Assembly: GCA_016217905.1 (NCBI GenBank)
Contig: JACRFL010000002.1
Span: 18,817-82,816, forward strand
Reading direction: 5' to 3'
DNA from: Candidatus Kaiserbacteria bacterium
GTDB taxonomy: Bacteria; Patescibacteriota; Minisyncoccia; Phycocordibacterales; Phycocordibacteraceae
DNA: 64,000 nucleotides
The translations under genes were made by a program, and so were the position numbers. Under the pieces are notes generated by a model that had not been told where the DNA came from, did not search any database, and saw nothing but the letters and a program-made list of their open reading frames with translations. This document shows, in pieces, positions 4,800-44,773 of the stretch (positions within the stretch are counted from its first letter, which is position 1; each line of letters begins with the position of its first letter).

Positions 4800-6191
4800 T
4801 CAAATCTTCTTTACCGAATCTTTCGTGATTTCCCACGTCTGACCGTAGTCGGGAACGATTGCGTTCCCGCCCAAGTAGTCGTGAATGCGCTGGGCGAGGA
4901 AGCGCTCCTCGGCGGGTTCGCCGATGGCGGTAAAGATGGCTTTCGTACGCCTCTCTGCAAGCGCCGCTTCGGCAAACTGGAGGAGTCCGTCGCGATCGGC
5001 GTGCGCCGACCAGCCCTCGAGCACCTCCACCTTCGCGTGCGCAACCACCTCTGCTCCGTTTATGCGTACCGTCTTCGCGCCCTCCTGGATGCGCCGCCCG
5101 GGGCTCCCGGGGGCCTGGTAGCCGACGATGATAAGCGTGGTCGCCGGGTCGGACAGGTACTGCGTCTCCCAGCGCCCGATGCGGCCGCCGTGGCTCATCC
5201 CCGCGCCAGCGATGATTATTTTCGGGTTCGGCGCCTTCTCTATCGACGCCGACTCTAAGCGTGAATTTGTCTTTGTGAGGAACGGGAATTCAAAAATGCT
5301 CCCTTCCCGCTTCATTTCATCCTCGGTCTCCGGCTTGAAATAGGTCATTCCCCACTTCTCGTAGACCTCCGTTACATGGATTGCAAGCGGCGAATCGAGA
5401 AAGACCGGAATCTGCGGAAGACTGTCTTCCGCAAAAAAGTTGGAGAGCTCGTAGAGCATGAGCTGGGTGCGCTCAAGCGAGAACGCAGGGATGAGGATCG
5501 TGCCGCCGCGGGCTATCGCGCGCACAAGCGTATCGCGCAGCGTCGCAACGCGCGCGCTCGACGGCGGGTGGATCCGATTGCCGTAGACGCTTTCCATCAC
5601 GAGCGCGTCCGCATCCTCTACCGGTTCCCAGTCAGGAAGAAGCGGCGAAGGCGAGTTGCCGATGTCGCCCGTAAGCGCGACGGCGACGCCCACCTCGTCT
5701 CTGATGCGCACGCTCGCGGAACCGAGGATGTGCCCGGTATTGCGCAGATACGCGGAGAGCCCGGGAGCGACCTCTTTTTCCGTATGGTACTCGAACGTTT
5801 CGATGAGCTTGAAGGTTTCCTCAACGTCTTTCTCCTCGTAGAGCGGTTCTCTGCCGCGGCGCGCGGCTTCCTCCGCGAGAATGCCGACGGAATCGCGCAA
5901 GATGAGTTCGGAAAGGTCCCTTGTCGGCGGCGTCATGTAAATTTTCCCGCCAAAGCTGTTCCGCACCAGCTTCGGGATACGGCCGACGTGGTCGAGATGC
6001 GCATGAGTCAGCACGAGCGCGTCGACCGTTTTCACATCGTACGGGAACGGCCCGTACACGCACTCCTCGCATAGGTGAGCACCCTGTTCGATGCCGCAAT
6101 CGACGAGAACTTTCCCGCGTGATCCCTCAATTAAAAAATTGGAACCGGTCACCTTCCCCGCTCCGCCGTAGAAACTAAGTCTGAGTGACAT
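4800..6191 (-). CDS. MBL-fold / beta-CASP family ribonuclease (RNase J/CPSF-like RNA-metabolising hydrolase)
   Basis: HAHLDH metal-binding motif. GG.GKVTGSNFLIE...VLVDCG N-terminus, plus beta-CASP region motifs. Confidence 0.75.
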   Translation of the reverse strand: MSLRLSFYGGAGKVTGSNFLIEGSRGKVLVDCGIEQGAHLCEECVYGPFPYDVKTVDALVLTHAHLDHVGRIPKLVRNSFGGKIYMTPPTRDLSELILRDSVGILAEEAARRGREPLYEEKDVEETFKLIETFEYHTEKEVAPGLSAYLRNTGHILGSASVRIRDEVGVAVALTGDIGNSPSPLLPDWEPVEDADALVMESVYGNRIHPPSSARVATLRDTLVRAIARGGTILIPAFSLERTQLMLYELSNFFAEDSLPQIPVFLDSPLAIHVTEVYEKWGMTYFKPETEDEMKREGSIFEFPFLTKTNSRLESASIEKAPNPKIIIAGAGMSHGGRIGRWETQYLSDPATTLIIVGYQAPGSPGRRIQEGAKTVRINGAEVVAHAKVEVLEGWSAHADRDGLLQFAEAALAERRTKAIFTAIGEPAEERFLAQRIHDYLGGNAIVPDYGQTWEITKDSVKKI

Positions 6192-6532: not shown

Positions 6533-7903
6533 CTAGTCGCCGTGGCGTTTGTAGCTTTGGATTTTCTTCCCTCCAAACCAGTGATCAATCTCGTGTGCGG
6601 CTTCTTCCGGCGTTTCTGAAGCGTGGAGAATATTCGCTACGGCGCGCTTCTCTGCATTCGCAACCGCCGGTGAATCGTTGGAGAAATCTCCGCGGATGGT
6701 ACCCATATCGGCCTGGTACGGCATCGTCGGTCCGCAAATCTTGCGCACCATGTCCACTGCGTGTGTCCCTTCAACTACCATCTTCACGAGAGGCGCAGAA
6801 AGCATATAGTCTACGAGCCACTTCCGAATCTCGGGACCGATCTCTTCCGGCACCGTGGTGCCGAAGTCCGCCATCGCATCGAATTGGTATTTTTCGTACG
6901 TTACGAGCGTCTTCTCGCCAAGACGCCTAATCCACGCCGCGTCCTTAGGATAGTGGTTATCAACCTCTTCAAATGACGGTTGAAACATCTCGAGCGCAAC
7001 GATCTTGAGATCACGCTGTTCAAAACGCTTTATAACTTCGCCGATGAGGCCTTTCTTCACGCCGTCCGGCTTGATCATTACGTATGTCTTCTCTTCTTTC
7101 GGATTCTTGTTGGCCATGGTTTGAAAAATAAAAGCGCCTGCGGCGGTTATGATACGCGCCCCGCCCTTCTCAAGCAAGATGGTGTGTTCGAAGTGGGCGC
7201 TCCTCGAGCCATCCTTGGTGCGGTAGGTATAGCCGTCGGGAGCTAGGACAACCGCCGCTTTGCCCGCGCTCGCGATGGGCTCGAGCGCGAGCACCATGCC
7301 CTCGGTGAGCAACTCGCCCTTACCCGGGCGGCCGAAGTTCGGAATGAACGGTTCTTCGTGTACGAGGTCGCCGACACCGTGCCCGCCGAGTTCTCTCACC
7401 ACGGTGAATCCCGCCCGCTCAATCTCCTCCTGTATCGCGTGGGAAACATCGCCCATATGATTCCCCGGGACGGCCGCGGCGATGCCCGCCGCAAGCGCGG
7501 CTTCGGTCGCGCGCATAAGCTTCTTGGACACTTCGTCCACCGTGCCCACCGGTACGGTAATCGCCGCGTCGACGACGACGCCCGCGTGGCGCAGGCCGAG
7601 ATCGAGGCCGACGATGTCGCCCTCCTTCAGCGTCTTGGCCGACTCATTCGGAATACCATGCACGACTTCATCGTTAATCGAGACGCACAGCGTCGCCGGA
7701 TACGACCGTCCCGCGCCCTCGGGCGTGTAGCCGAGGAAGCAGGGATCATCGCCTCCGTCGCGGATAAGCCGCTCCGCGAGGTCGTCGAGCTCTTCGGCGG
7801 AAACGCCGGGCGCCACCTTCGCGCGAAGCGCTTTCAACACGGCCGCGAGGCGCTTCCCCGCCTCAATGAGGCTCGCCCGTTCGGTGTCGTTTGCGATTGT
7901 CAT
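6533..7903 (-). CDS. map-ndk: In-frame fusion of methionine aminopeptidase type I (N-terminal about 262 aa, 7118..7903) with nucleoside diphosphate kinase (C-terminal 194 aa, 6533..7117; an internal ATG sits at 7117)
   Basis: MAP metal ligands are present (DIVGLDLG..D, HGVGDLVHE, EHTILL). A linker AAGAFIFQT is followed by MANKN...YVMIKPDGVKKGLIGEVIKRFE...GTIRGDF...NILHASE (NDK catalytic His motif). There is no stop codon between them. Confidence 0.8.
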   Translation of the reverse strand: MTIANDTERASLIEAGKRLAAVLKALRAKVAPGVSAEELDDLAERLIRDGGDDPCFLGYTPEGAGRSYPATLCVSINDEVVHGIPNESAKTLKEGDIVGLDLGLRHAGVVVDAAITVPVGTVDEVSKKLMRATEAALAAGIAAAVPGNHMGDVSHAIQEEIERAGFTVVRELGGHGVGDLVHEEPFIPNFGRPGKGELLTEGMVLALEPIASAGKAAVVLAPDGYTYRTKDGSRSAHFEHTILLEKGGARIITAAGAFIFQTMANKNPKEEKTYVMIKPDGVKKGLIGEVIKRFEQRDLKIVALEMFQPSFEEVDNHYPKDAAWIRRLGEKTLVTYEKYQFDAMADFGTTVPEEIGPEIRKWLVDYMLSAPLVKMVVEGTHAVDMVRKICGPTMPYQADMGTIRGDFSNDSPAVANAEKRAVANILHASETPEEAAHEIDHWFGGKKIQSYKRHGD

Positions 7904-20654: not shown

Positions 20655-20744
20655 ATTACTTCCTACTCGCGATGATGTCTTGGGCGATATTGTTCGGGAC
20701 AGTGTCGTAGTGGTCGAATTCCATGGTCATCGAGCCGCGGCCTT
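20655..20744. repeat. Relic duplicate of the fusA 3' end (90 bp, 100% identical to 21293..21382)
   Basis: Direct sequence comparison. It encodes ...[30 protein letters not shown], identical to the EF-G C-terminus. Confidence 0.9.
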
Positions 20745-20747
20745 TTG

Positions 20748-21014
20748 TTAGATACGGTAAATCCAACTGTGCGGCCCGCAAGTGAGAAATAGCGCGGTCG
20801 AGGCGTCGAGCCAACGGAAAATAATCCGATACTGTCGATTGATCCTGAAACTCCAAAGTTCGCGCTGTTTCGGATGCAACTTTTCGGTATGCAGTGACGG
20901 ATGGTAAGGATTCTCGCTGAACAATATCCATTTCTTATGTGCTTGCTTCCGCACTGCGGCGGGCAATTCGGCAAAACGCCTTTCGAATTCAAAAGTGGTC
21001 TCGACCGCGATCAT
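20748..21014 (-). CDS. Type II toxin, RelE/ParE superfamily
   Basis: ENPYHPSLHTEKL...ELWSFRINRQYRIIFRWLD...CGPHS matches the RelE/ParE core (..L.enP.....kL.......R....YRiiy.......Ih.igpH). Overlaps the upstream antitoxin by 4 nt. Confidence 0.7.
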   Translation of the reverse strand: MIAVETTFEFERRFAELPAAVRKQAHKKWILFSENPYHPSLHTEKLHPKQRELWSFRINRQYRIIFRWLDASTALFLTCGPHSWIYRI

Positions 21015-21244
21015 GCGGCGCGAATTTTGCTGGGCATATGTACCCGGTGACTACGCCCAGCGTGGTAGTCGGCTTCGGCACGTGTCACACTCGCGAGGAA
21101 CTCCGGATTGAATAAACCAAAGGAAGCTGCGAGTCGCTCCAAGCGGTCGGCGTCAAGCTCAAGCACAAGCTTATGGCTCTTCGAATTTTTCGAACGAATG
21201 GTGGCAGCAATGCGGTTCATGTCCACAGTATAACACGCCTTCAT
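21011..21244 (-). CDS. Putative antitoxin partner of the RelE/ParE toxin (small; family uncertain)
   Basis: 77-aa ORF immediately upstream of, and translationally coupled to, the toxin. Located in the low-GC insert. The start may be the internal MNRIAATI. Confidence 0.45.
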   Translation of the reverse strand: MKACYTVDMNRIAATIRSKNSKSHKLVLELDADRLERLAASFGLFNPEFLASVTRAEADYHAGRSHRVHMPSKIRAA

Positions 21245-21293
21245 GAATTAAAGAAAATCGCCCAGGATTGATGAGTACGGCGTATCGGCCAAA

Positions 21294-23441
21294 TTACTTC
21301 CTACTCGCGATGATGTCTTGGGCGATATTGTTCGGGACAGTGTCGTAGTGGTCGAATTCCATGGTCATCGAGCCGCGGCCTTCGGTCATGGAGCGGAGTG
21401 TGGTGGTGTAGCCGAACATCTCCGAGAGCGGCACCTTTGCATGCACGACCTTGTTCATCCCGCGCTCTTCCATTCCTTCTATCTGCGCGCGCTTCCCGGA
21501 GAGGTTACCGGTGATGTCGCCCATGAACTGGTCCGGCACGACGACCTCGACGCGCATAATCGGCTCGAGAATGACCGGCTTCGCTTTCTGCGCCGCTTCC
21601 TGAAAGGCCATCGACGCGGCGATCTTGAAGGCGATTTCGGATGAGTCGACGTCGTGGTAGCTGCCGTCATAGAGGTCGACCGAGATGTCGACCATCGGGA
21701 AGCCGGCCAGATATCCGCGCGACATCGCCTCGCGCACGCCCTTCTCCACCGCCGGAATATATTCCTGCGGGACGACACCGCCCTTGATGTTGTTGACGAA
21801 TTCGAAATGATCCTCGCGAGTAACGTTCTTCGCCACTTTCGCTTCCGGATCGACCGGCTCCATCTTCTTCATCTTGATCTTCACGTGGCCGTACTGACCG
21901 CGGCCGCCGGTCTGCTTGATGTACTTCCCTTCGGCCTCCGAGGAGCCGAGAATCGTCTCGCGATACGCCACTTGCGGCTTGCCCACGTCCGCGACGACGT
22001 TGAATTCGCGCTTCATGCGGTCAACGAGAATTTCAAGGTGCAGCTCACCCATGCCGGAAATGATGGTCTCGTTCGTCTCCTCGTCGGTCTTGATGCGGAA
22101 GGTCGGGTCCTCGTCGCTAAGCTTCCTGAGCGCGATGCCCATCTTCTCCTGGTCGGCCTTTGTCGAGGGCTCGATGCGGAGGCTGACAACTGGTTCGGGG
22201 AATTTGATCTGCTCAAGCACGATAGGGCTCGCCTCGTCGCAGAGCGTGTGCGAGGTCTTCGTATCCTTCAGTCCCACCGCGGCGGCGATCTCCCCGGTGA
22301 ACACCTTTTCGACTTCTTCGCGCTTGTCGGCCTGGAGCCGGACGATGCGGCCAACGCGCTCCTTCGAGCCGGTCGTCGAGTTGTAGACGTAGGAACCGGC
22401 GGTGAGGGTACCCGAATACACGCGGAAGAAGGTCAGCGCGCCGACGAAAGGATCGGTCTGGAGTTTGAACGCGAGCGCACAGAACGGCTCGTCGTCGGAG
22501 GCGTGGCGCTCGATCGGCTCGCCGGTTTTCGGGTTCGTGCCGGTTGCGGGCGGCAGGTCCAAGGGCGACGGTAGATAGTCGACGACCGCGTCGAGCACGA
22601 GCTGTACTCCCTTGTTCTTGAGCGCGCTCCCGCAGTAGACGGGGAAGATTTCGTTATTGACGACCGCCTTGCGCAGGATCGCTTTCAATTCTTCAACGCT
22701 CGGCTCTTTGCCCTCGAGATAGGCGCTCATCGCTTTGTCATCCTGCTCGACGATGCGCTCGATAAGATCGGCGCGATACTTCTTCGCATCTTCGAGAAGG
22801 TTCGCCGGAATCTCGCCCTCAATCACCTCCTCACCCATATTCCCAGAGAAGGTATACGCCTTCATCGCGAGCAAGTCGACGACGCCCTCATGCGCGCTCT
22901 CCTCGCCGATGGGGATCTGCATGCGGATGGCCTTTTTCGAGAGACGATCAAGGATGCTCGCGTAGGAGCGCTCGAAGGAGGCGCCGACGCGATCGAGCTT
23001 ATTGATGAAACAGACGCGCGGTACCTGCGCCTCATCCGCATAGCGCCAGTTGGTCTCGGACTGAGGCTCTACCCCCGCCACCCCGTCGAAGACGACGATC
23101 GCGCCGTCAAGCACGCGCATCGAGCGCTTCACCTCGGCGGTGAAGTCGATGTGGCCGGGAGTGTCGATGATATTGAAGCGAAATTTCTTGGTCGTATCCT
23201 TCTTGTCGGACTCGCCGGTCTTTGTCCAGAAACAGGTGATGGCGGCGGCGGTGATGGTGATGCCGCGCTCGCGCTCCTGCTCCATCCAGTCGGTCGTTGT
23301 CTCGCCCTCATGCACCTCGCCGATCTTGTGCTGGCTACCCGTATAGAAAAGCACGCGCTCGCTGGTCGTCGTCTTGCCCGCGTCGATATGCGCGATGATG
23401 CCGAAATTGCGTACTTTCTCTAACGGATAGTCTCTGTTCAT
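21294..23441 (-). CDS. fusA: Elongation factor G
   Basis: [18 protein letters not shown] and NKLD G-motifs; complete domains I-V. Start set at the [15 protein letters not shown] Met. Confidence 0.97.
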
Positions 23442-23885: not shown

Positions 23886-23939
23886 TCACCACGCGAAGTG
23901 GGCGAAGGCCTTGTTGGCGTCGGCCATGCGGTGCATCAT
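23886..23939. repeat. Relic duplicate of the rpsG 3' end (54 nt; about 48/54 identical to 24563..24616, all differences synonymous or in the stop codon)
   Basis: The minus-strand reading gives MMHRMADANKAFAHFAW*. The genuine S7 C-terminus is EMHRMADANKAFAHFAW*. Confidence 0.75.
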
Positions 23940-24172
23940 TTGCCTTGCAACAATTTCAAAAATTCATCCGCTGATATTTTCGCCTGCCTAAGAATGCTGG
24001 CCAAGTCCTTGCGTGATATATCGCGCGAATGACGCGGCACCGTTGCAAATCGTGTCGGATCAGCGGCGTGCCGTAGAAATACGTGACTTCCCTTCTGTCT
24101 AATAATCGTGAACCCCGCCTTAAGGAGCGCGGCGATGATTGTCGCCGCACGAAGCATCGGCAAAATGCTCAT
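23936..24172 (-). CDS. hicA: HicA-family toxin (mRNA interferase)
   Basis: LLKAGFTIIRQKGSHVFLRH...TVPRHSRDISRKDLASILRQAKIS matches the HicA consensus (..GF...RQKGSH......G...TVP.H...L..G.L.SIL.QAGL). Confidence 0.8.
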   Translation of the reverse strand: MSILPMLRAATIIAALLKAGFTIIRQKGSHVFLRHAADPTRFATVPRHSRDISRKDLASILRQAKISADEFLKLLQGK

Positions 24173-24468
24173 GCGTATACGGTAACTGGACCGGCTATTC
24201 TTGCAGTTTTACCCTTTCCGGTTATGTGTCCTTCATCATCAATAACTATTTTTCCGTCATCGAATGCAATTTCGCACAGTCCTTCAATAAGGTCATTCGC
24301 CATGTATTTTGCGTCAGCAAGAGTGGAACCTTGCGTCATTGTTTTTTGAAAGCTTGGGACTTCTACAAGATATAATTTGTCAGACCGGTCATACCATATG
24401 AGCGCATTAAAAATGCCATATTTAGTCTTGATAAGATATTTCCTTTTCATCCGCCAAGTATAGCACAA
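24169..24468 (-). CDS. hicB: HicB-family antitoxin (N-terminal RNase H-like HicB domain)
   Basis: KYLIKTKYGIFNALIWYDRSDKLYLVEVPSFQKTMTQGSTLADAKYMANDLIEGL is close to the HicB N-domain consensus. Overlaps hicA by 4 nt. Start may be the internal MKRKYL. Confidence 0.65.
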   Translation of the reverse strand: MCYTWRMKRKYLIKTKYGIFNALIWYDRSDKLYLVEVPSFQKTMTQGSTLADAKYMANDLIEGLCEIAFDDGKIVIDDEGHITGKGKTARIAGPVTVYA

Positions 24469-24562
24469 CGGCCAATTTTGATTACTACCAAGTGAGTGAG
24501 CGAAAAGAAATTCCTATTTCACTTTTCGAACGAACGCGGGGAGGAAGCTTTGTCCTCAAAGC

Positions 24563-25027
24563 TTACCACGCGAAGTGGGCGAAGGCCTTGTTCGCATCCG
24601 CCATGCGGTGCATCTCGTCCTTCTTCTTAATTGCATCGCCCTCGTTCTTGGCGGCGAGGAGGAGCTCGGCGGCGAGCTTCTCCGCCATCGGCTTCCCTTT
24701 CTTCGCGCGTGCCGCGGTAATCAACCAGCGGAAGGAGAGAGCGAGGCGCCGATTCTGCGGCACTTCCCGCGGCACCTGGTAGTTCGCCCCGCCGACGCGT
24801 CGCGAGCGGACCTCCATCAGGGGCGAAACGTTGCGCAGCGCCGCTTCGAAGGTCTCGAGCGGGTCGGCGCCGCCTTCTTTAACCGCGGCGAGCGCGTCGT
24901 AGACAACCGCGCGGGCGGTGTCCTTCTTCCCGTCCCACATGACCGCATTGATAAAGCGGGTGAGCGTCTCCGAGCCGTAGGTGAGGTCGGGGCGCCAGGT
25001 ACGCTTCTTTTTAAGGGGTCGGCGCAT
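24563..25027 (-). CDS. rpsG: 30S ribosomal protein S7
   Basis: FINAVMWDGKKDTARAVVYDAL...VGGANYQVPREV. Confidence 0.95.
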   Translation of the reverse strand: MRRPLKKKRTWRPDLTYGSETLTRFINAVMWDGKKDTARAVVYDALAAVKEGGADPLETFEAALRNVSPLMEVRSRRVGGANYQVPREVPQNRRLALSFRWLITAARAKKGKPMAEKLAAELLLAAKNEGDAIKKKDEMHRMADANKAFAHFAW

Positions 25028-25442: not shown

Positions 25443-25572
25443 TTAGAAAAAGAAGACCCGAGGTGGGTCACAAGCAATATAAAGGAATGGTGAGAGGAAT
25501 GCAACTTGGGCAGGCCGTAGGGAAAGTGGTTTGAATCTTTCCCGCATTTTCCTACAGACTACAATCTACTCC

Positions 25573-26235
25573 CTACAAACTATTTTCATCGATCGGCTCG
25601 CGGTAAGGGTCGGACGAGTACGCTCTTGGGAGCGCGGGGTTCGCGGGCGTGACGGGAATCGCGGCGGGGCGGGGCGGGGCGGGAGGTTCTGTCTGCAGTA
25701 TAGGAGGGGCGAATCGCGGTTCCGGAATCCGCGGCGGGACCTTGTTGAACTCGATATGCGGCTCCTCGTGATCCTCGAGCAGCCGGTCGCTCTCCATCGA
25801 CCTCGGAGTTGGGGAGGTCTGACCTTCCCCACTACTCACGGGAGGTTGCGGGGGTTGCGGAATGTAGCGCGGCGCTGGCGCGCTCATCGCCCGCGGCGCC
25901 GAGGGCGGTGCCGCGCCCCTCCGCTCCTCTTCCCGCAGCGGTACGAAGATCTGAGCATTGACATCCTGCACGATGCCGTCGACGGTCTCCCGGTCGAGAT
26001 GTGCCTCCTCGGCAAGCGCCTGAACGAACTCGTCCGGGTTCTCGACACCCATCAGGAGCAACATTATTTCTCGCTCGAGCACGCCGCCCTGATCGATGCG
26101 CAAACCGTACTTGGTCATCATATTCCTTGCGACTGCCGTATATCTCCCCTGCGTGAGATATGTGCGTATCACCGGCGGCAAGGTCTGCATCACTTGCTTG
26201 ACATCATCCTCTAGATTTTGGTTTTGTGGATCCAT
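25573..26235 (-). CDS. Hypothetical protein: globular N-terminal domain of about 105 aa plus a Pro-rich, low-complexity C-terminal half
   Basis: PPxPP-rich tail (APPSAPRAMSAPAPRYIPQPPQPPVSS...). Last gene of the four-gene operon upstream of rpsL. Confidence 0.5.
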   Translation of the reverse strand: MDPQNQNLEDDVKQVMQTLPPVIRTYLTQGRYTAVARNMMTKYGLRIDQGGVLEREIMLLLMGVENPDEFVQALAEEAHLDRETVDGIVQDVNAQIFVPLREEERRGAAPPSAPRAMSAPAPRYIPQPPQPPVSSGEGQTSPTPRSMESDRLLEDHEEPHIEFNKVPPRIPEPRFAPPILQTEPPAPPRPAAIPVTPANPALPRAYSSDPYREPIDENSL

Positions 26236-38876: not shown

Positions 38877-39007
38877 ATAAATACAGTAAGTAGTTTGTAG
38901 GGAGTAGGTTGTAGAAAAATACAAAAACTCCCCGTGCTATTAAAATTCAGCGGCGTAGCCGCCACTCTCATACTACCCCCTACTCCCTATCCCCTACAAC
39001 CCTGGTG

Positions 39008-39365: not shown

Positions 39366-40286
39366 ATGAACGTCGAAAACGCGAAACGGCAATTTCTTGA
39401 ACACACCGAGATAGAGCGCGGCCGCGCAGTGAAGACCGTCGAGAACTACGACCGCTACCTTTCGCGCTACTTCGCGCAGATGGATATCAAAGACATCGGC
39501 GACATCAGCGAAGAGAGCGTCCGCGCATTCCGCCTTTGGCTCAACCGCCAGCCGGGAACGAATACCGACTCAATGAAGCGCCGCACGCAGAATTACTACA
39601 TGATCGCGCTCCGTGCTTTTTTGAAGTTCCTCCGGAAGCGCGATGTCGAGGCCATCAGTCCTGAGAAAATAGAGCTTGCGAAGCTCCCCGAGCGCCAGCT
39701 CGACCTTATTACCACGGCCGAGCTTGAGCGGCTTATGCAGGCGCCGCGGGAGGCGTTTGAAAAGGAAAAGGATCCCGATAAAGCAAGGAATTATTTGCGC
39801 GACCGTGCCATCCTCGAACTCCTCTTCTCGACCGGGCTGCGCGTGTCCGAGCTCTGTTCGCTTAATTCCGATATCGACCTATCGCGCGACGAGCTCTCGG
39901 TGCGTGGCAAGGGCGAGAAGGTGCGCGTCGTCTTCCTCTCGAGCGCTGCCAAGGAGGCGGTGCGGAATTATTTGAAAGCGCGAGACGACATGGAGGAAGC
40001 GCTCTTTGTCGACGGGCGGCCGAACAAGCTGCACCGCATTATCCCGCGTGACATCCAGCGGCACTTGAAGGCGTACGTCGCGCGCGCGGGCATCACAAGC
40101 GTGGTCACTCCCCACACCCTTCGCCACGCCTTTGCGACCGACCTGCTCTCTAACGGCGCCGATATCCGCTCGGTCCAACAGCTCCTCGGCCACGCCTCCA
40201 TCAACACCACGCAGATCTACACGCACATCACCGACAGTCATTTGCGAGAAATACACAAGAAGTACCACTCGCGTTCGAGAGGTTAG
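39366..40286 (+). CDS. xerD: Tyrosine site-specific recombinase XerC/XerD family
   Basis: N-terminal SAM-like core-binding domain. Catalytic region with R...HTLRHAFATDLLSNGADIRSVQQLLGHASINTTQIYTHI (R-H-R-Y). Confidence 0.85.
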   Translation: MNVENAKRQFLEHTEIERGRAVKTVENYDRYLSRYFAQMDIKDIGDISEESVRAFRLWLNRQPGTNTDSMKRRTQNYYMIALRAFLKFLRKRDVEAISPEKIELAKLPERQLDLITTAELERLMQAPREAFEKEKDPDKARNYLRDRAILELLFSTGLRVSELCSLNSDIDLSRDELSVRGKGEKVRVVFLSSAAKEAVRNYLKARDDMEEALFVDGRPNKLHRIIPRDIQRHLKAYVARAGITSVVTPHTLRHAFATDLLSNGADIRSVQQLLGHASINTTQIYTHITDSHLREIHKKYHSRSRG

Positions 40287-40338
40287 TGACACATACAATT
40301 TCAGAAACGGAAACGAAGAGGCGCCGCGTGCGCGGCGC

Positions 40339-40611
40339 CTAGTCATCATGCATTATTGCCCACTCCACTTCGCCTCGGTCGTCAAACCCGAAGCACAAAT
40401 AAATCTCTTCAAAACCGTAAGTCGGGAGACATTCGTTTGCGCAGTCGATGATGTCGAGCAACGGCACAACGAGCCTTCTCCCTTCTTGCTCGAGACCGAT
40501 AAGGATACTTTCGCTCGCCTTAGGATCGATTAGTATCCCCCAATTGCCGTAATCGGCGTCTTCGGATTCTTGCATGAACCCCACGAGCTCGCGGATCGTA
40601 AAAAGAGACAT
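40339..40611 (-). CDS. Hypothetical small protein
   Basis: ORF of 90-110 aa with no recognisable motif. Start ambiguous (40611 or 40671). Confidence 0.3.
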   Translation of the reverse strand: MSLFTIRELVGFMQESEDADYGNWGILIDPKASESILIGLEQEGRRLVVPLLDIIDCANECLPTYGFEEIYLCFGFDDRGEVEWAIMHDD

Positions 40612-40700
40612 AGTCACCTCGCGTGAATGAGCATCCGGACCCCACTTTACGCCAATATCACAACGAGGCAAGCCACGTCATTGCGGTATACAATAGCCGT

Positions 40701-41471
40701 ATGAAAATCGTCTCGTGGAATGTAAATGGTCTGCGCTCGCTCGCCAAGGACGGCTACTGGGAATCCTTCTTGAAGGGCATAAAGCCGGACATCTTCTGCT
40801 TGCAAGAGACCAAGGCGAACCCGGAGCAGCTCGGAGAGGAGTTCCTCTCTCCTGACGGCTACTCGGCATTTTTCTCCTCTTGCCGGGTACGCAAGGGTTA
40901 CAGCGGCGTCGCATTGTATTCAAAGATTGAGCCTCTCAAAGTTATTTACGGCCTGGGAATACAGGAATTTGACCAAGAAGGTCGCTTTATCGGCGCTGAA
41001 TACGAAGACTTCTGGCTCTTAAACGCGTACTTCCCCAACGCCGGTCAAGGCCCCGAGCGGCTTGATTACAAATTGCGTTTCTATGACGCCTTCCTCGCAT
41101 TCGCGGAGAAATTGCGCGAACAAAAGCCGGTCATTTTCTGCGGTGATGTGAACACCGCACACGAGGAGATAGACCTCGCCCGGCCCAAAGAAAATGACGC
41201 AAACACTGGCTTTCTCCCCGAAGAGCGCGCCTGGATAGACGAGGTCGTGAGCGCCGGCTACGTCGACTCCTTCCGCCATTTCCATCCCCACACCAAGGAG
41301 GCCTACAGCTATTGGGACTTGTTTACCCACGCCCGCGACAGAAACATCGGCTGGCGTCTCGACTACTTCTTCGTCGCGAGTGAATTTATAAAACATATTA
41401 AAAAAGCCGAGATCCACCCAGACATTTACGGCTCCGACCACTGCCCTGTCTCGATTACCATCTCTTCTTAA
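40701..41471 (+). CDS. xth: Exodeoxyribonuclease III (AP endonuclease, EEP family)
   Basis: MKIVSWNVNGLRS..., QETK, ..GDVN..H..IDL.., SYW and a C-terminal GSDHCP motif. Confidence 0.9.
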   Translation: MKIVSWNVNGLRSLAKDGYWESFLKGIKPDIFCLQETKANPEQLGEEFLSPDGYSAFFSSCRVRKGYSGVALYSKIEPLKVIYGLGIQEFDQEGRFIGAEYEDFWLLNAYFPNAGQGPERLDYKLRFYDAFLAFAEKLREQKPVIFCGDVNTAHEEIDLARPKENDANTGFLPEERAWIDEVVSAGYVDSFRHFHPHTKEAYSYWDLFTHARDRNIGWRLDYFFVASEFIKHIKKAEIHPDIYGSDHCPVSITISS

Positions 41472-41717
41472 TTATTTATACGTATACGTAGTATCGTTCC
41501 TTCGACCGACAAATTCGATTTTGACCGTGTTGTGTGTGGTATAAGAAAAAATGACCCGGATATCGCCCTTCCGCACGCGGTACATATTTTCCGTTCCTTT
41601 GAGTTTTTTCACATTCAACCCGATGAGATCATTGCGGCTTAAACGCGCGATTAGGATATTCAGAGATTCACGCTCCTTCTTTGTCAGTGAGTTGAGAAAT
41701 TTATTTATTTTTTGCAT
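41472..41717 (-). CDS. Type II toxin, RelE/ParE superfamily
   Basis: NMYRVRKGDIRVIFSYTTHNTVKIEFVGRRND matches YRVRVGDYRIIY...VGHR. Its stop codon abuts the xth stop. Confidence 0.7.
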   Translation of the reverse strand: MQKINKFLNSLTKKERESLNILIARLSRNDLIGLNVKKLKGTENMYRVRKGDIRVIFSYTTHNTVKIEFVGRRNDTTYTYK

Positions 41718-41970
41718 CGAATCGCTTCATTGCAGTAATAAATTTATCTATTGACATACCGCCTTCCTTTCTGAAATCGACAACCGTCTCCCAAGTGCCC
41801 TCGTCACCCCACTCGTCCACTGGGACCAGCTTGAAGACCGGCCGAGAGCGGCGTACGACCGTAAACGATTTGCCCTGTTCCGTCTGGCGAATATAGGTAC
41901 TCATATTCTCCCGGAGCTCCTTGAGCCCGATAATCCGCTGTACCTTTTTTGTTGCGATAGCCATATGCAC
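41701..41970 (-). CDS. Phd/YefM-family antitoxin
   Basis: IGLKELRENMSTYIRQTEQGKSFTVVRRSRPVFKLVPVDEW matches the Phd/YefM N-domain. Overlaps the toxin start. Confidence 0.65.
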   Translation of the reverse strand: MHMAIATKKVQRIIGLKELRENMSTYIRQTEQGKSFTVVRRSRPVFKLVPVDEWGDEGTWETVVDFRKEGGMSIDKFITAMKRFDAKNK

Positions 41971-42018
41971 GAAGTTTATCTAAAGATAATCTTCCCGTCA
42001 ATGGGTTATATACACGCC

Positions 42019-42067
42019 CACGACATTCTACGGCTCCGACCACTGCCCCGCCTCCATTTCGCTCTAA
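42019..42067. repeat. Relic duplicate of the xth 3' end (diverged; 26/27 nt core identity gacatt(c)tacggctccgaccactgccc, frameshifted by 1 nt, ends in TAA)
   Basis: Without the extra C it reads DIYGSDHCPASISL*. The genuine xth end is DIYGSDHCPVSITISS*. Confidence 0.5.
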
Positions 42068-42346
42068 AGGACAGTCCGCGGAGCGGACTGAGCAGGTTAT
42101 CCACACTGTGTCCTTTACAGTGTCTTTTATGAGAATATACTCAACAGAGGACGGGATGTTCTTTATTGATCTGTCCGGCATCAGATGCGCCAGACGAGGC
42201 ACCTGCCACCGCTGCGCGGCGATCCGCGACACAAGCCCTTTGGCACGGTGTTCCTTAGTCGGAGCGCCAGCATGCATTAAGCAAAAAGCTGCCCCACTCT
42301 CTGGTCGGAGACCCTATCATTCACGCCCCTGCTCCTTTTTGTCTCC

Positions 42347-42368
42347 GGCCGCTCTGGGCGGCTTTTTT
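42347..42368 (+). terminator. Intrinsic terminator-like hairpin (GCCGC-TCTGG-GCGGC then TTTTTTG)
   Basis: GC stem plus a T-run on the plus strand, downstream of the xth relic. Confidence 0.4.
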
Positions 42369-42420
42369 GTTCCACGTGGAACTTATTTCATATACAACTA
42401 TGGAAGTCAGACTTCGATAG

Positions 42421-43890
42421 TTAACACACATGGTGCTTCTCCATTATGTGCTTTATTTCCTCATCTTCTGCGGCCTCCCTCCTCTGCTTCCCTGCTTCGC
42501 CAAGCGCCCTCAGCTCATCTTCGGATAGTTTCAGTAGTTTTTCGGTCTTTGTGTCAAGATATTCCTCGGTATTTTTATCAGCATCATCAAGTATTTCCTC
42601 AAGGAGGGCGTTGAGTGCCCAGCCAATCTTCGGTCCAGGGTTCACGTGGAACTTTTCCATGATATGTGAGCCATCTGTCTTAAGCATCTTGACTGAAATG
42701 GGATCGCGAAGTGCCTGATCAACCATCGCCTTGTACTTACGAAAGCGGAAGGGCTGCTCCTTTGGCCTGCCGGTGCCTATGCGGTCACAGATACGGAGAT
42801 TGAGCAGGTCCCAGATGTTCTCCTCACCAACGTTCGTTATCATCCTGCGGACTGCCGAGAGGGTAATCTGCTCCGGATCAGAGAAGAACATATGCCACCT
42901 CACTAATTTGACGACTTTTTCTATAGTCTCCCGCGGGAAGTGAAGATTTTCGAGCGCCTTCTTTGTTACACGTGAACCAACGACCTCGTGCCCATGGAAG
43001 GTCCAATCCTTCTTCTCCTCCGACCAGCGACGAGTCTCCGGTTTCGATATGTCGTGGAAGAGTCCGGCGAGGCGAATGTCAAAATCCCAGTTCTTGTCGG
43101 CCCCATGTTGCATGGTACGCAAATTGTGTTCAAAGACATCATACGAATGCGCCTGATTCTGCTTGACGCCGATGCCGCGGATAAGGTCTGGCACGATAAA
43201 TTTAAGGATTCCAAGCTGTTGTGCGAGGACAAGAGCGCTCATTGGCTGAGAAGAATTGAGAATTCTGGCGAGCTCATCCTTTACTCTTTCACGTGAAACG
43301 TGGTTTAAATGCTCGCTATTTTCGCTTATCGCCTTAGCGGTAGCGCCGTCTATGCCGAAGCCAAGCTCGGCGACGAAACGGACCGCACGGAGCACACGTA
43401 GCGCGTCTTCGTTAAAGCGCTCTGTCGGATTCCCTACTGCTCGCACGATTTTGTCCTTTATGTCCTTTTGACCCTCATGGGGGTCGACAATGTGTCCTTT
43501 AGAATCTTCAAGGGCGATTGCATTGATGGTAAAGTCGCGCCGCGCGAGATCTTCGATAAGCGACGTGTCGAAGGTGACTTGATCTGGCCGACGTTTATCA
43601 GAATATCCTGACTCAAGCCGATAGGGAGTTACTTCAACAATAGCGAGGCGCGAATCCTCTGCGCCTGTTTTCACCCCGACAGTACCGTAATCATTTTCAT
43701 AAAAAGAGTCAGGAAATACGGCTTGAATCTGCTCTGGGGAGGCATTGGTAGTGATATCCCAGTCCTTTGGCTCTAGCCCGATAATAAGGTCACGAACGCA
43801 TCCGCCGACCAAATAGGATTCATATCCCTCCCGCCGCAAACCGCTGGAGACAAGCTCAATTTCTTTCGGGATGCGGTAATGCATTTTCAA
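42421..43890 (-). CDS. cca: CCA tRNA nucleotidyltransferase / poly(A) polymerase family with HD domain
   Basis: GGCVRDLIIG..DWDIT head domain, then an HD-type region (RLAGLFHDISKP). Confidence 0.85.
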   Translation of the reverse strand: MKMHYRIPKEIELVSSGLRREGYESYLVGGCVRDLIIGLEPKDWDITTNASPEQIQAVFPDSFYENDYGTVGVKTGAEDSRLAIVEVTPYRLESGYSDKRRPDQVTFDTSLIEDLARRDFTINAIALEDSKGHIVDPHEGQKDIKDKIVRAVGNPTERFNEDALRVLRAVRFVAELGFGIDGATAKAISENSEHLNHVSRERVKDELARILNSSQPMSALVLAQQLGILKFIVPDLIRGIGVKQNQAHSYDVFEHNLRTMQHGADKNWDFDIRLAGLFHDISKPETRRWSEEKKDWTFHGHEVVGSRVTKKALENLHFPRETIEKVVKLVRWHMFFSDPEQITLSAVRRMITNVGEENIWDLLNLRICDRIGTGRPKEQPFRFRKYKAMVDQALRDPISVKMLKTDGSHIMEKFHVNPGPKIGWALNALLEEILDDADKNTEEYLDTKTEKLLKLSEDELRALGEAGKQRREAAEDEEIKHIMEKHHVC

Positions 43891-44702: not shown

Positions 44703-44773
44703 CGGGCCGGAGTATGCCGGTAGTACGCGTCCTTTGGGAGGATGTAGACCGAGTTCAATTCTCGGCGGCCCGA
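44703..44773 (+). tRNA. tRNA-Pro (anticodon TGG)
   Basis: Manual fold. Acceptor CGGGCCG/CGGCCCG. Anticodon stem CGTCC/GGATG with loop TTTGGGA. T-arm CCGAG-TTCAATT-CTCGG. 71 nt, no encoded CCA. Confidence 0.65.

Follow-up and report, generated by a model that had tools for sequence, protein, structure and literature searches.

In a 64-kb stretch of DNA with a GC content of 58.6% (hereafter, the window), the DNA-repair gene for exodeoxyribonuclease III, xth (40701-41471, plus strand; TIGR00633, E 6.5e-92; PF03372) is followed by a compact toxin-antitoxin (TA) cassette and, beyond it, by a second copy of the xth terminus, which we refer to as the relic. The Xth protein of the window is 70-91% identical to those of approximately 70 genomes assembled from metagenomes and bearing the labels Candidatus Kaiserbacteria, Paceibacterota or Parcubacteria, which places the window in an ultra-small groundwater bacterium of the Candidate Phyla Radiation (CPR)/Patescibacteria; furthermore, a protein encoded in another part of the window has an identical NCBI record under Ca. 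Kaiserbacteria. Metagenome contigs and loci of relatives are designated below by L-numbers; 71 relatives were compared for the context downstream of xth and 70 for the tails of the gene. Promoters were located with a promoter scan and repeats within the window by self-comparison.

The cassette measures ~0.54 kb and consists of a promoter, an antitoxin gene of the Phd/YefM family and a toxin gene, both genes lying on the minus strand. The toxin gene (41472-41717; 81 aa) is convergent with xth, and its stop codon (41472-41474) abuts the xth TAA (41469-41471) with a gap of 0 nt, as noted in a preliminary description made from the sequence alone. The antitoxin gene (41701-41964; 87 aa) overlaps the toxin start by 17 nt. 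Its assignment to Phd/YefM in that description was borne out by matches to PF02604 (32.3 bits, cut-off 29.8, E 8.6e-8) and TIGR01552 (34.6 bits, cut-off 20.8, E 8.6e-9), and an identical 87-aa product was called on an independent contig. The RelE/ParE-type label given to the toxin was upheld with one nuance: no Pfam or NCBIfam family was matched above threshold (ParE_toxin, E 0.054), but a profile of 4 homologs matched RelE structures (RelE3, 3bpq_B, E 3.3e-4; aRelE, 1wmi_A, E 3.4e-3), and the best Foldseek matches of the AlphaFold2 model (pLDDT 82, topology alpha-alpha-beta4) were likewise RelE structures (TM 0.65-0.71). Judging from the match to archaeal RelE structures and the predicted fold, the toxin is a RelE-fold protein; residues R47, R49, K50, R54, R72, R73 and Y78 are invariant in 8 homologs, and two homologs carry the JGI name RelE. 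In its gene order, antitoxin domain, toxin fold and residues, and promoter with a palindrome, the pair fits type II TA systems of the Phd/YefM-RelE class.

The sigma-70-type promoter of the cassette, TTGACG-17-TAAACT (41973-42001, minus strand), overlaps the palindrome TTATCTttAGATAA, that is, TTATCT-tt-AGATAA (41976-41989), which is conserved across loci and is likely to be an operator for autoregulation. The promoter sequence, agtttatctaaagataatctt, is 100% conserved in the window, L010 and L034, and is also conserved in L081-L088; its -35 box forms the edge of the cassette. Between promoter and relic lies a 20-nt spacer, tgggttatatacacgcccac (42002-42021, plus strand), with homologous counterparts in L081, L083, L084, L085 and L088, and this spacer may be the decayed upstream part of a carried xth fragment. 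The GC content of the cassette is low compared with that of the window, although the figure of ~42% first put forward was slightly too low: the whole cassette has 44.7% (toxin gene, 39.8%; antitoxin gene, 48.5%) and xth 52.9%.

The two copies of the xth terminus form a direct repeat. The live copy (41421-41471, plus strand) contains an exact 20-nt core, TACGGCTCCGACCACTGCCC (41427-41446), encoding YGSDHCP, and ends in a tail of ~25 nt (41447-41471; ..VSITISS*, the asterisk denoting the stop codon) that is two codons longer than the tails found at cassette-free, or empty, xth sites. The relic, found within a few bases of where the preliminary description had placed it, spans 46 nt (42022-42067, plus strand), with the core at 42029-42048 and a TAA at 42065-42067. 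It has one extra C at 42028, with which the repeat reaches back to GACATT (42022), and reads D-I-(+C)-Y-G-S-D-H-C-P-A-S-I-S-L-TAA; its tail, CGCCTCCATTTCGCTC, comprises 16 nt that differ from the live tail and the TAA, 19 nt in total (..SISL*). Without gaps, 37 nt of the repeat align at 84% identity. In the whole 64 kb there are exactly two occurrences of the core, at the two positions given; when up to 3 mismatches were allowed, 0.02 chance matches were expected, and two matches were obtained in 0 of 100 shuffles. A repeat family, which would have been an explanation of the match unrelated to xth, was rejected on the grounds that the 20-nt core is present only twice in the window.

Which of the two ends is ancestral was assessed by comparison with the relatives. 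About 55 of the 71 carry, 5-50 nt downstream of the xth stop, a conserved block, AGGACA..(G)TTATCCACA..TGTCCTTTACAnTGTCCTTTA, the end of which is also given as TGTCCTTTACA. In the window this block (42068-42141, plus strand; AGGACA...TTATCCACA at 42097-42105...TGTCCTTTACA), which includes a promoter, TTTACA-16-TATACT (42114-42141, plus strand), comes after the TAA of the relic and not after the live xth stop. Moreover, the relic tail ..SISL* agrees in length and type with tails from empty sites (e.g. ..SITL*), whereas the live tail ..SITISS* resembles those of occupied sites (..ITIGT*, ..ITIAT*, ..ITITN*, ..ITVSQP*). Since the native block follows the relic and the relic tail is of the empty-site type, comparison with the relatives identifies the relic as the original xth end, with the cassette lying between a replacement end and the original one; by the same comparison, the block at 42068-42141 marks the former end of xth, before insertion.

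The block is itself the beginning of a conserved non-coding unit (42068-42374, plus strand) that separates xth from cca in ~60 relatives. The unit comprises the DnaA-box-like TTATCCACA, the promoter TTTACA-16-TATACT, an RNA of ~225 nt and a terminator (42347-42372). RNAalifold applied to 14 relatives yielded 25 pairs, 15 of them with compensatory changes, and some lineages have extra hairpins. No Rfam family matched the unit at E<=1, nor was there a match in a search over 41900-42500; the product is likely to be an undescribed structured small RNA (sRNA). At occupied xth sites of L004, L010, L022, L042, L052 (two copies) and L053, a gene for a TrmB-family regulator of ~250 aa lies directly upstream of the sRNA promoter.

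The same Phd-RelE family is convergent to xth in at least ten other contigs: L010, L034, L081, L083-L086, L088, L093 and L161. At most of these sites the toxin stop overlaps the xth stop or lies no more than ~18 nt from it (~90 nt in L081), and in all copies the edge of the cassette is the -35 box. Past the -35 box, the window, L081, L083, L084, L085 and L088 share the ~19-nt spacer and, next to it, gacatytacggctcc, the 5' part of the relic. This shared edge sequence implies that the 5' part of the relic travels with the cassette. A variant of the arrangement was found in L033, where a homologous toxin at the xth site is accompanied by a MazE/AbrB-type antitoxin and a 48-nt in-frame relic, DVYGSDHCPISITTN*. 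Relic lengths vary: ~46-60 nt in the window, 31 nt in L010, 48 nt in L033 and 30 nt in L008 and L028. Among the relatives with the ..PVSITIS* ending, the closest ones (L001 and L002) also have inserted DNA between the stop codon and the conserved motif.

In a neighbour-joining tree of Xth, occupied loci are scattered among empty ones, and L083 and L084 represent a deep-branching Xth lineage. When L083 was compared with L034 in 60-nt windows, the xth bodies were 33-68% identical and the cassettes 73-83%. At about 80% identity against about 55%, the cassette is more alike than xth, which shows that it moved into a distant host at the same site. The live ends of L083 and L084 begin with host-type sequence, ..YPEV(P/M)GS, and continue as DHCPVSITIN* (L083) or DHCPIGVTIG* (L084), the tail PVSITIN* of L083 being identical to that in L034 and L086 of the Kaiserbacteria clade. 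Conversely, their relics begin with element-type sequence (DIHGS in L083, DTYTP in L084) and continue with P-IELV(V/T)S(F/L)* in frame to the stop, a tail of the P[VI]EL type of non-Kaiserbacteria Xth proteins. By this comparison, the live and relic copies of L083 and L084 are reciprocal hybrids of element and host. The switch point falls within the conserved core GGCTCNGACCAC, which encodes GSDH, as expected if the resident gene recombined with an xth fragment that the cassette carried.

Two further arrangements were noted at xth relics. In L008 (~6025-6095) and L028 (~6735-6805), the coding sequence of the replacement tail, ..PVAITIAT*, forms a perfect 9-bp hairpin, GGTCGCGAT-tac-ATCGCGACC, and is directly followed by the 30-nt relic (gaccactgccc..taa) without cargo, an arrangement that looks like a scar after cargo loss; L003 has the same type of tail with cargo present. 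Separately, an insertion of ~42 nt (e.g. gctgcgccccgccgaagccggccagcaggctggcgtagaagg) is located directly after ggctcc of the xth relic or after the xth stop in L085, L088 and L022. It splits the relic at one common position in the three loci and may be a small hairpin-forming insertion element.

The architecture of gene, cassette and displaced end is not limited to xth, and its occurrence at fusA and rpsG, already pointed out in the preliminary description, was confirmed. At fusA (20655-21382, minus strand), the live gene end (21293-21382) is followed by 48 nt, an antitoxin gene (21011-21244), a HigB/RelE-like toxin gene (20748-21014; an exact-protein look-up of the toxin returned no record), 3 nt and a perfect copy of the fusA end (20655-20744), the repeat being 90 nt long and 100% identical. 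The fusA cassette is also present in another Kaiserbacteria genome, L166, where a 51-nt relic starts no more than 5 nt from the same fusA position and matches the genome's own live copy at 50 of 51 positions, although the toxins of L166 and the window are only 81% identical. At rpsG (23888-24614, minus strand), a 50-nt repeat with 94% identity (live end, 24565-24614; copy, 23888-23937, with its own TGA) flanks a HicB-like gene (24169-24450) and a HicA gene (23936-24172; PF07927, E 4.9e-16). Both cassettes lie inside the str operon.

A further TA family, RelB/YafQ, forms cassettes convergent to the xer stop in L045, L053 and L039 and cassettes between xer and xth in L056, L022, L088 and L081. 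The promoter-proximal end of this cassette is cattgtatacacaaccgcaacc, which in 5 of the 7 loci is followed by decayed relics of the xer tail, all starting at one xer position. L045 carries an array of xer, cassette, relic, partial older antitoxin or cassette, and second relic. In L001, a 56-nt repeat (95% identity) of the end of the NYN gene flanks a TrmB-type regulator (1736-2593 region) and an ORF (open reading frame) of unknown function, showing that the cargo is not strictly TA. By eye, without a formal test, the repeats at xth, xer, fusA and rpsG have no common sequence; the only string shared by the xth and fusA repeats, CGACCACT, encodes D-H in both and was judged to be due to chance. 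Judged from these comparisons, docking at gene ends is general in this clade.

Could such structures have been created during assembly, by a chimeric join of strain variants or by the unrolling of a small circle into the chromosome path? The source is a metagenome-assembled genome, and a repeat such as that at fusA, 90 nt at 100%, can be mis-resolved by short-read assemblers. However, the xth copies are not identical (84% over 37 nt), their exact match of 20 nt is shorter than the usual k-mers, and positions 40905-42471 of the window are matched at 100% identity by a Logan contig from run SRR12113407, so that both copies are contiguous in a second, separate assembly. The same architecture is, moreover, present in assemblies from unrelated studies (L010, L033, L081, L083-L088), which leaves an artefact hardly credible.

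The reading that we favour, with moderate confidence, is that a mobile TA cassette devoid of its own recombinase docks on the 3' end of xth and inserts probably by homologous recombination. A piece of xth that travels with the cassette would recombine with the end of the resident gene, so that the relic would act as a portable homology arm. Two routes can be envisaged: a circle with one gene-end fragment could integrate by a single crossover, or a linear repeat-cassette-repeat fragment taken up by transformation could integrate by a double crossover, in which case the relic would be the right-hand arm. The enzyme would most likely be the general homologous recombination system of the host, given that both a cassette-encoded recombinase and a common site are lacking. 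By eye, the repeats have nothing in common between targets, which makes a single sequence-specific enzyme unlikely; homologous recombination is compatible with every site. In the occupied site, the upstream copy supplies the working xth with a slightly longer tail, and the downstream copy is the displaced end, now decaying and placed just before the native downstream promoter. Recombination between the two repeats could then remove the cassette, and RelE/Phd addiction would select against the cells that lose it. Patescibacteria are reported to retain homologous recombination genes as well as comEC/pilus competence (PMC12455944), and for TA islets that lack mobile-element genes, a spread through homologous recombination at the core genes on either side has been proposed (PMC13617665).

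A duplicated gene 3' end forming a direct repeat around cargo, together with a tail supplied by the element, is also the classic signature of an integrase, an example being icd and icdC around e14 in Escherichia coli (PMC13626634). The cassette might then be the remnant of, or be mobilised in trans by, an integrase-bearing element, with the xth 3' end as attB and an attP carrying the replacement end. In such a version, an element of the type of e14 or phage 21 at icd would have decayed to a unit resembling a cis-mobilizable element (CIME) that kept the addictive TA pair, and the host Xer could be the enzyme. TA pairs are typical last survivors of decaying elements, and the L045 array and the constant start of the relics across copies of one cassette family speak for site-specific integration, as do documented cases of CIMEs that lack an integrase and of tandem accretion at target-gene ends (PMC5704250).

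However, neither the cassette nor other cargo at the more than 25 occupied xth loci includes an integrase or recombinase, the xer, fusA and rpsG sites likewise lack an integrase, and none was found near any of the more than 30 occupied sites, in a search that covered these loci rather than whole genomes. The at least 4 targets have no common repeat sequence by eye, so that each would need its own recombinase, and the edges are the -35 box and the toxin stop even at fusA, where the repeats are 100% identical, leaving no room for remnants of a larger element. The only tyrosine recombinase gene in the 64 kb is xer (39366-40286), of the XerC/D type, whose location 1.2 kb away had been remarked on in the preliminary description. 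A link between this gene and the cassette was rejected: the order nyn-rpsO-xer-xth-cca is kept in ~60 relatives with or without the cassette, xer being syntenic also in those with empty sites, and the dif-like motifs that might have been expected at the cassette boundaries are absent from every edge. A search for CATAA-N6-TTATG with up to 2 mismatches gave 13 matches in the window, none near the three cassettes, with the limit that the dif of this clade may itself diverge. Site-specific integration thus appears unlikely, if still a serious alternative.

Several other identities were examined and rejected. A transposon, miniature inverted-repeat transposable element or insertion sequence does not fit: terminal inverted-repeat scores at all three window cassettes were no better than those of shuffles, the duplications are 37-90 nt of coding sequence, and there is no transposase ORF. 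An integron cassette was rejected given that neither attC nor an imperfect palindrome is present at either edge and that no integron integrase was found, the local recombinase scoring 131 bits against a 265-bit integron-integrase cut-off. An RNA or cDNA intermediate is contradicted by the inclusion in the mobile unit of the promoter -35 and -10 boxes, which lie upstream of any transcript start. As regards a phage or plasmid carrier, a scan of viral contigs with the antitoxin profile was empty.

Alternatively, the insertion could be the product of illegitimate, or homology-facilitated illegitimate, recombination followed by selection: DNA anchored in xth would have been joined just upstream of the resident stop, the survivors being those that kept xth and the downstream promoter, and the relic would be a by-product without a role in mobility, with tight edges resulting from deletion bias. 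The differing relic lengths (window, L010, L033, L008/L028) are in line with such events, as are the intergenic spacers of only 0-30 nt in these genomes, which offer few neutral insertion points, and the lack of a repeat in most members of the TA family. Against it, the junction of promoter, spacer and relic is the same to the nucleotide in at least 6 loci, including a distant lineage, a constancy not expected of illegitimate joins made independently each time, and RelB/YafQ at xer shows a similarly constant junction. Nor does the 5' part of the relic in L083/L084 derive from the host's own xth, and the fusA copy, with 100% identical repeats, already has tight edges. We consider this explanation improbable.

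Several points weigh against insertion by homologous recombination. The evidence for mobility is comparative throughout, and the recombination event itself is not among the observations. The repeats offer little homology, a 20-nt exact core within 37-60 nt, which approaches the minimum that RecA-dependent exchange requires. The same hybrid copies, as attL and attR, would result from an integrase that acted in trans or has been lost by decay. Only one clearly independent acquisition (L083/L084) allows the crossover to be mapped, and the junction of toxin and xth differs between the window (0 nt) and L081 (~90 nt with a hairpin), such that later rearrangements blur the original edges. In both genomes with a fusA cassette, the relic is ~100% identical to the genome's own live copy; this identity, which a simple model of a foreign arm does not predict, suggests gene conversion between the repeats or duplication of resident sequence. 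Finally, about 55 of 60 contigs with this Phd-RelE family show no flanking repeat, significant repeats being confined to L081, L109 and L116 among the 60 metagenomic copies. The repeat is thus not needed for residence and may mark only recent events or particular sites. The rny-convergent copies (L162-L165) have no relic, and the copies between fusA and tuf have no repeat.

The Phd-RelE family is widespread in groundwater CPR contigs, including L092, L095, L107, L131 and L134 (fusA-tuf spacer) and ~40 other loci. Its copies are usually squeezed between housekeeping genes, and the toxin stop lies -4 to +9 nt from the start of the gene that follows; the -35 box of L134 begins directly at the fusA stop.

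The arrangement has counterparts among known systems, from which it departs in being a bare 0.5-kb TA operon, with no evident integrase partner, found at several conserved genes and with several TA families. The closest resemblance in layout is to e14 and phage 21 at icd of E. coli, where the order is likewise gene, new 3' end, cargo and displaced old end as a direct repeat, and where the gene stays functional; recombination between icd and icdC removes the cargo and makes a chimeric gene (PMC13626634). In contrast to e14 and phage 21, the cargo described here is 0.54 kb, consists of one TA operon, and lacks integrase, excisionase and phage genes; the repeats measure 37-90 nt, and the architecture recurs at several genes within one 64-kb stretch. 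The piling up of successive insertions in L045 is reminiscent of CIMEs and accretion in the ICESt1/ICESt3 family (PMC5704250). However, CIMEs are decay products of kb-sized integrative and conjugative or integrative and mobilizable elements and need a related integrase, and no partner element or integrase is present near the more than 30 sites described here. Integron gene cassettes, including the TA cassettes of chromosomal integrons (PMC13108822), are similarly minimal, have tight edges and their own promoter, comprise several TA families and recur at fixed sites. Unlike them, the present cassettes have no attC hairpin, attI or IntI and, instead of forming an array in one platform, are scattered over the ends of housekeeping genes.

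Xer-dependent elements, namely integrative mobile elements exploiting Xer (IMEX) such as CTXphi/TLC, and pdif modules, are recombinase-less cargo that exploits the host recombinase, and once inserted they lie between a good and a degenerate copy of the site. The xth cassette shares with them both the lack of a recombinase and the pairing of one good with one degenerate copy, but no dif-like sequence is present at its edges, and the repeats are coding sequence of the target gene that differs between targets. TA islets, too, are TA pairs without mobile-element genes that sit between conserved genes and are proposed to spread by host recombination (PMC13617665). Here, in contrast, one flank is a carried duplicate of the other, and both arms match the same ~50 nt of one gene, which makes insertion independent of the downstream gene order. 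In a literature search that was incomplete, we found no account of CPR bacteria with TA cassettes lying between duplicated gene ends, so that an earlier description is possible.

More broadly, and only tentatively, we suggest the possible existence in CPR bacteria of a class of recombinase-free mobile elements, each of which would use as its homology arm a brief stretch duplicated from the 3' end of a highly conserved gene (xth, xer, fusA or rpsG). Natural transformation and RecA would allow insertion into any genome that has the gene, whatever lies downstream, the TA pair would punish deletion between the repeats, and the relic would be a functional part of the life cycle and not debris. The loci described here show how selfish gene pairs can invade genomes with hardly any intergenic space, even in the middle of the str operon, by docking on the last codons of conserved genes, replacing the tail and leaving a datable fossil. 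If insertion is indeed driven by homology, fragments of conserved genes would serve as attachment sites without a dedicated recombinase, which would extend the known repertoire of mobile elements and suggest a simple design for gene delivery into uncultivated CPR bacteria. Relics and altered C-termini are also traps for annotation, leading to false pseudogenes and wrong gene ends, and the relics are useful as markers of recent gene flow among CPR lineages.

The spacer between xer and xth, which is ~20 nt in many relatives, measures 415 nt in the window (40287-40700). It contains an ORF on the minus strand (40339-40671; 110 aa) for which neither a homolog in 70 relatives nor a Pfam or NCBIfam match was found; in relatives, the same spacer is occupied by RelB/YafQ cassettes or by as much as 3 kb of other DNA. 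This varied content points to a second insertion hot spot. Elsewhere in the window, ARAGORN predicts a tRNA-Pro(TGG) at 44703-44773 that is absent from the output of the Rfam tRNA model at the gathering threshold. In addition, a 24-nt motif, TACAAyCTACTCCCTACAAACTA, is found upstream of rpsL (25559-25582) and, inverted, upstream of the NYN gene (38891-38914), the two copies being 95.8% identical; with a related copy at ~38975-38997, it may be a promoter-associated or repeat motif.

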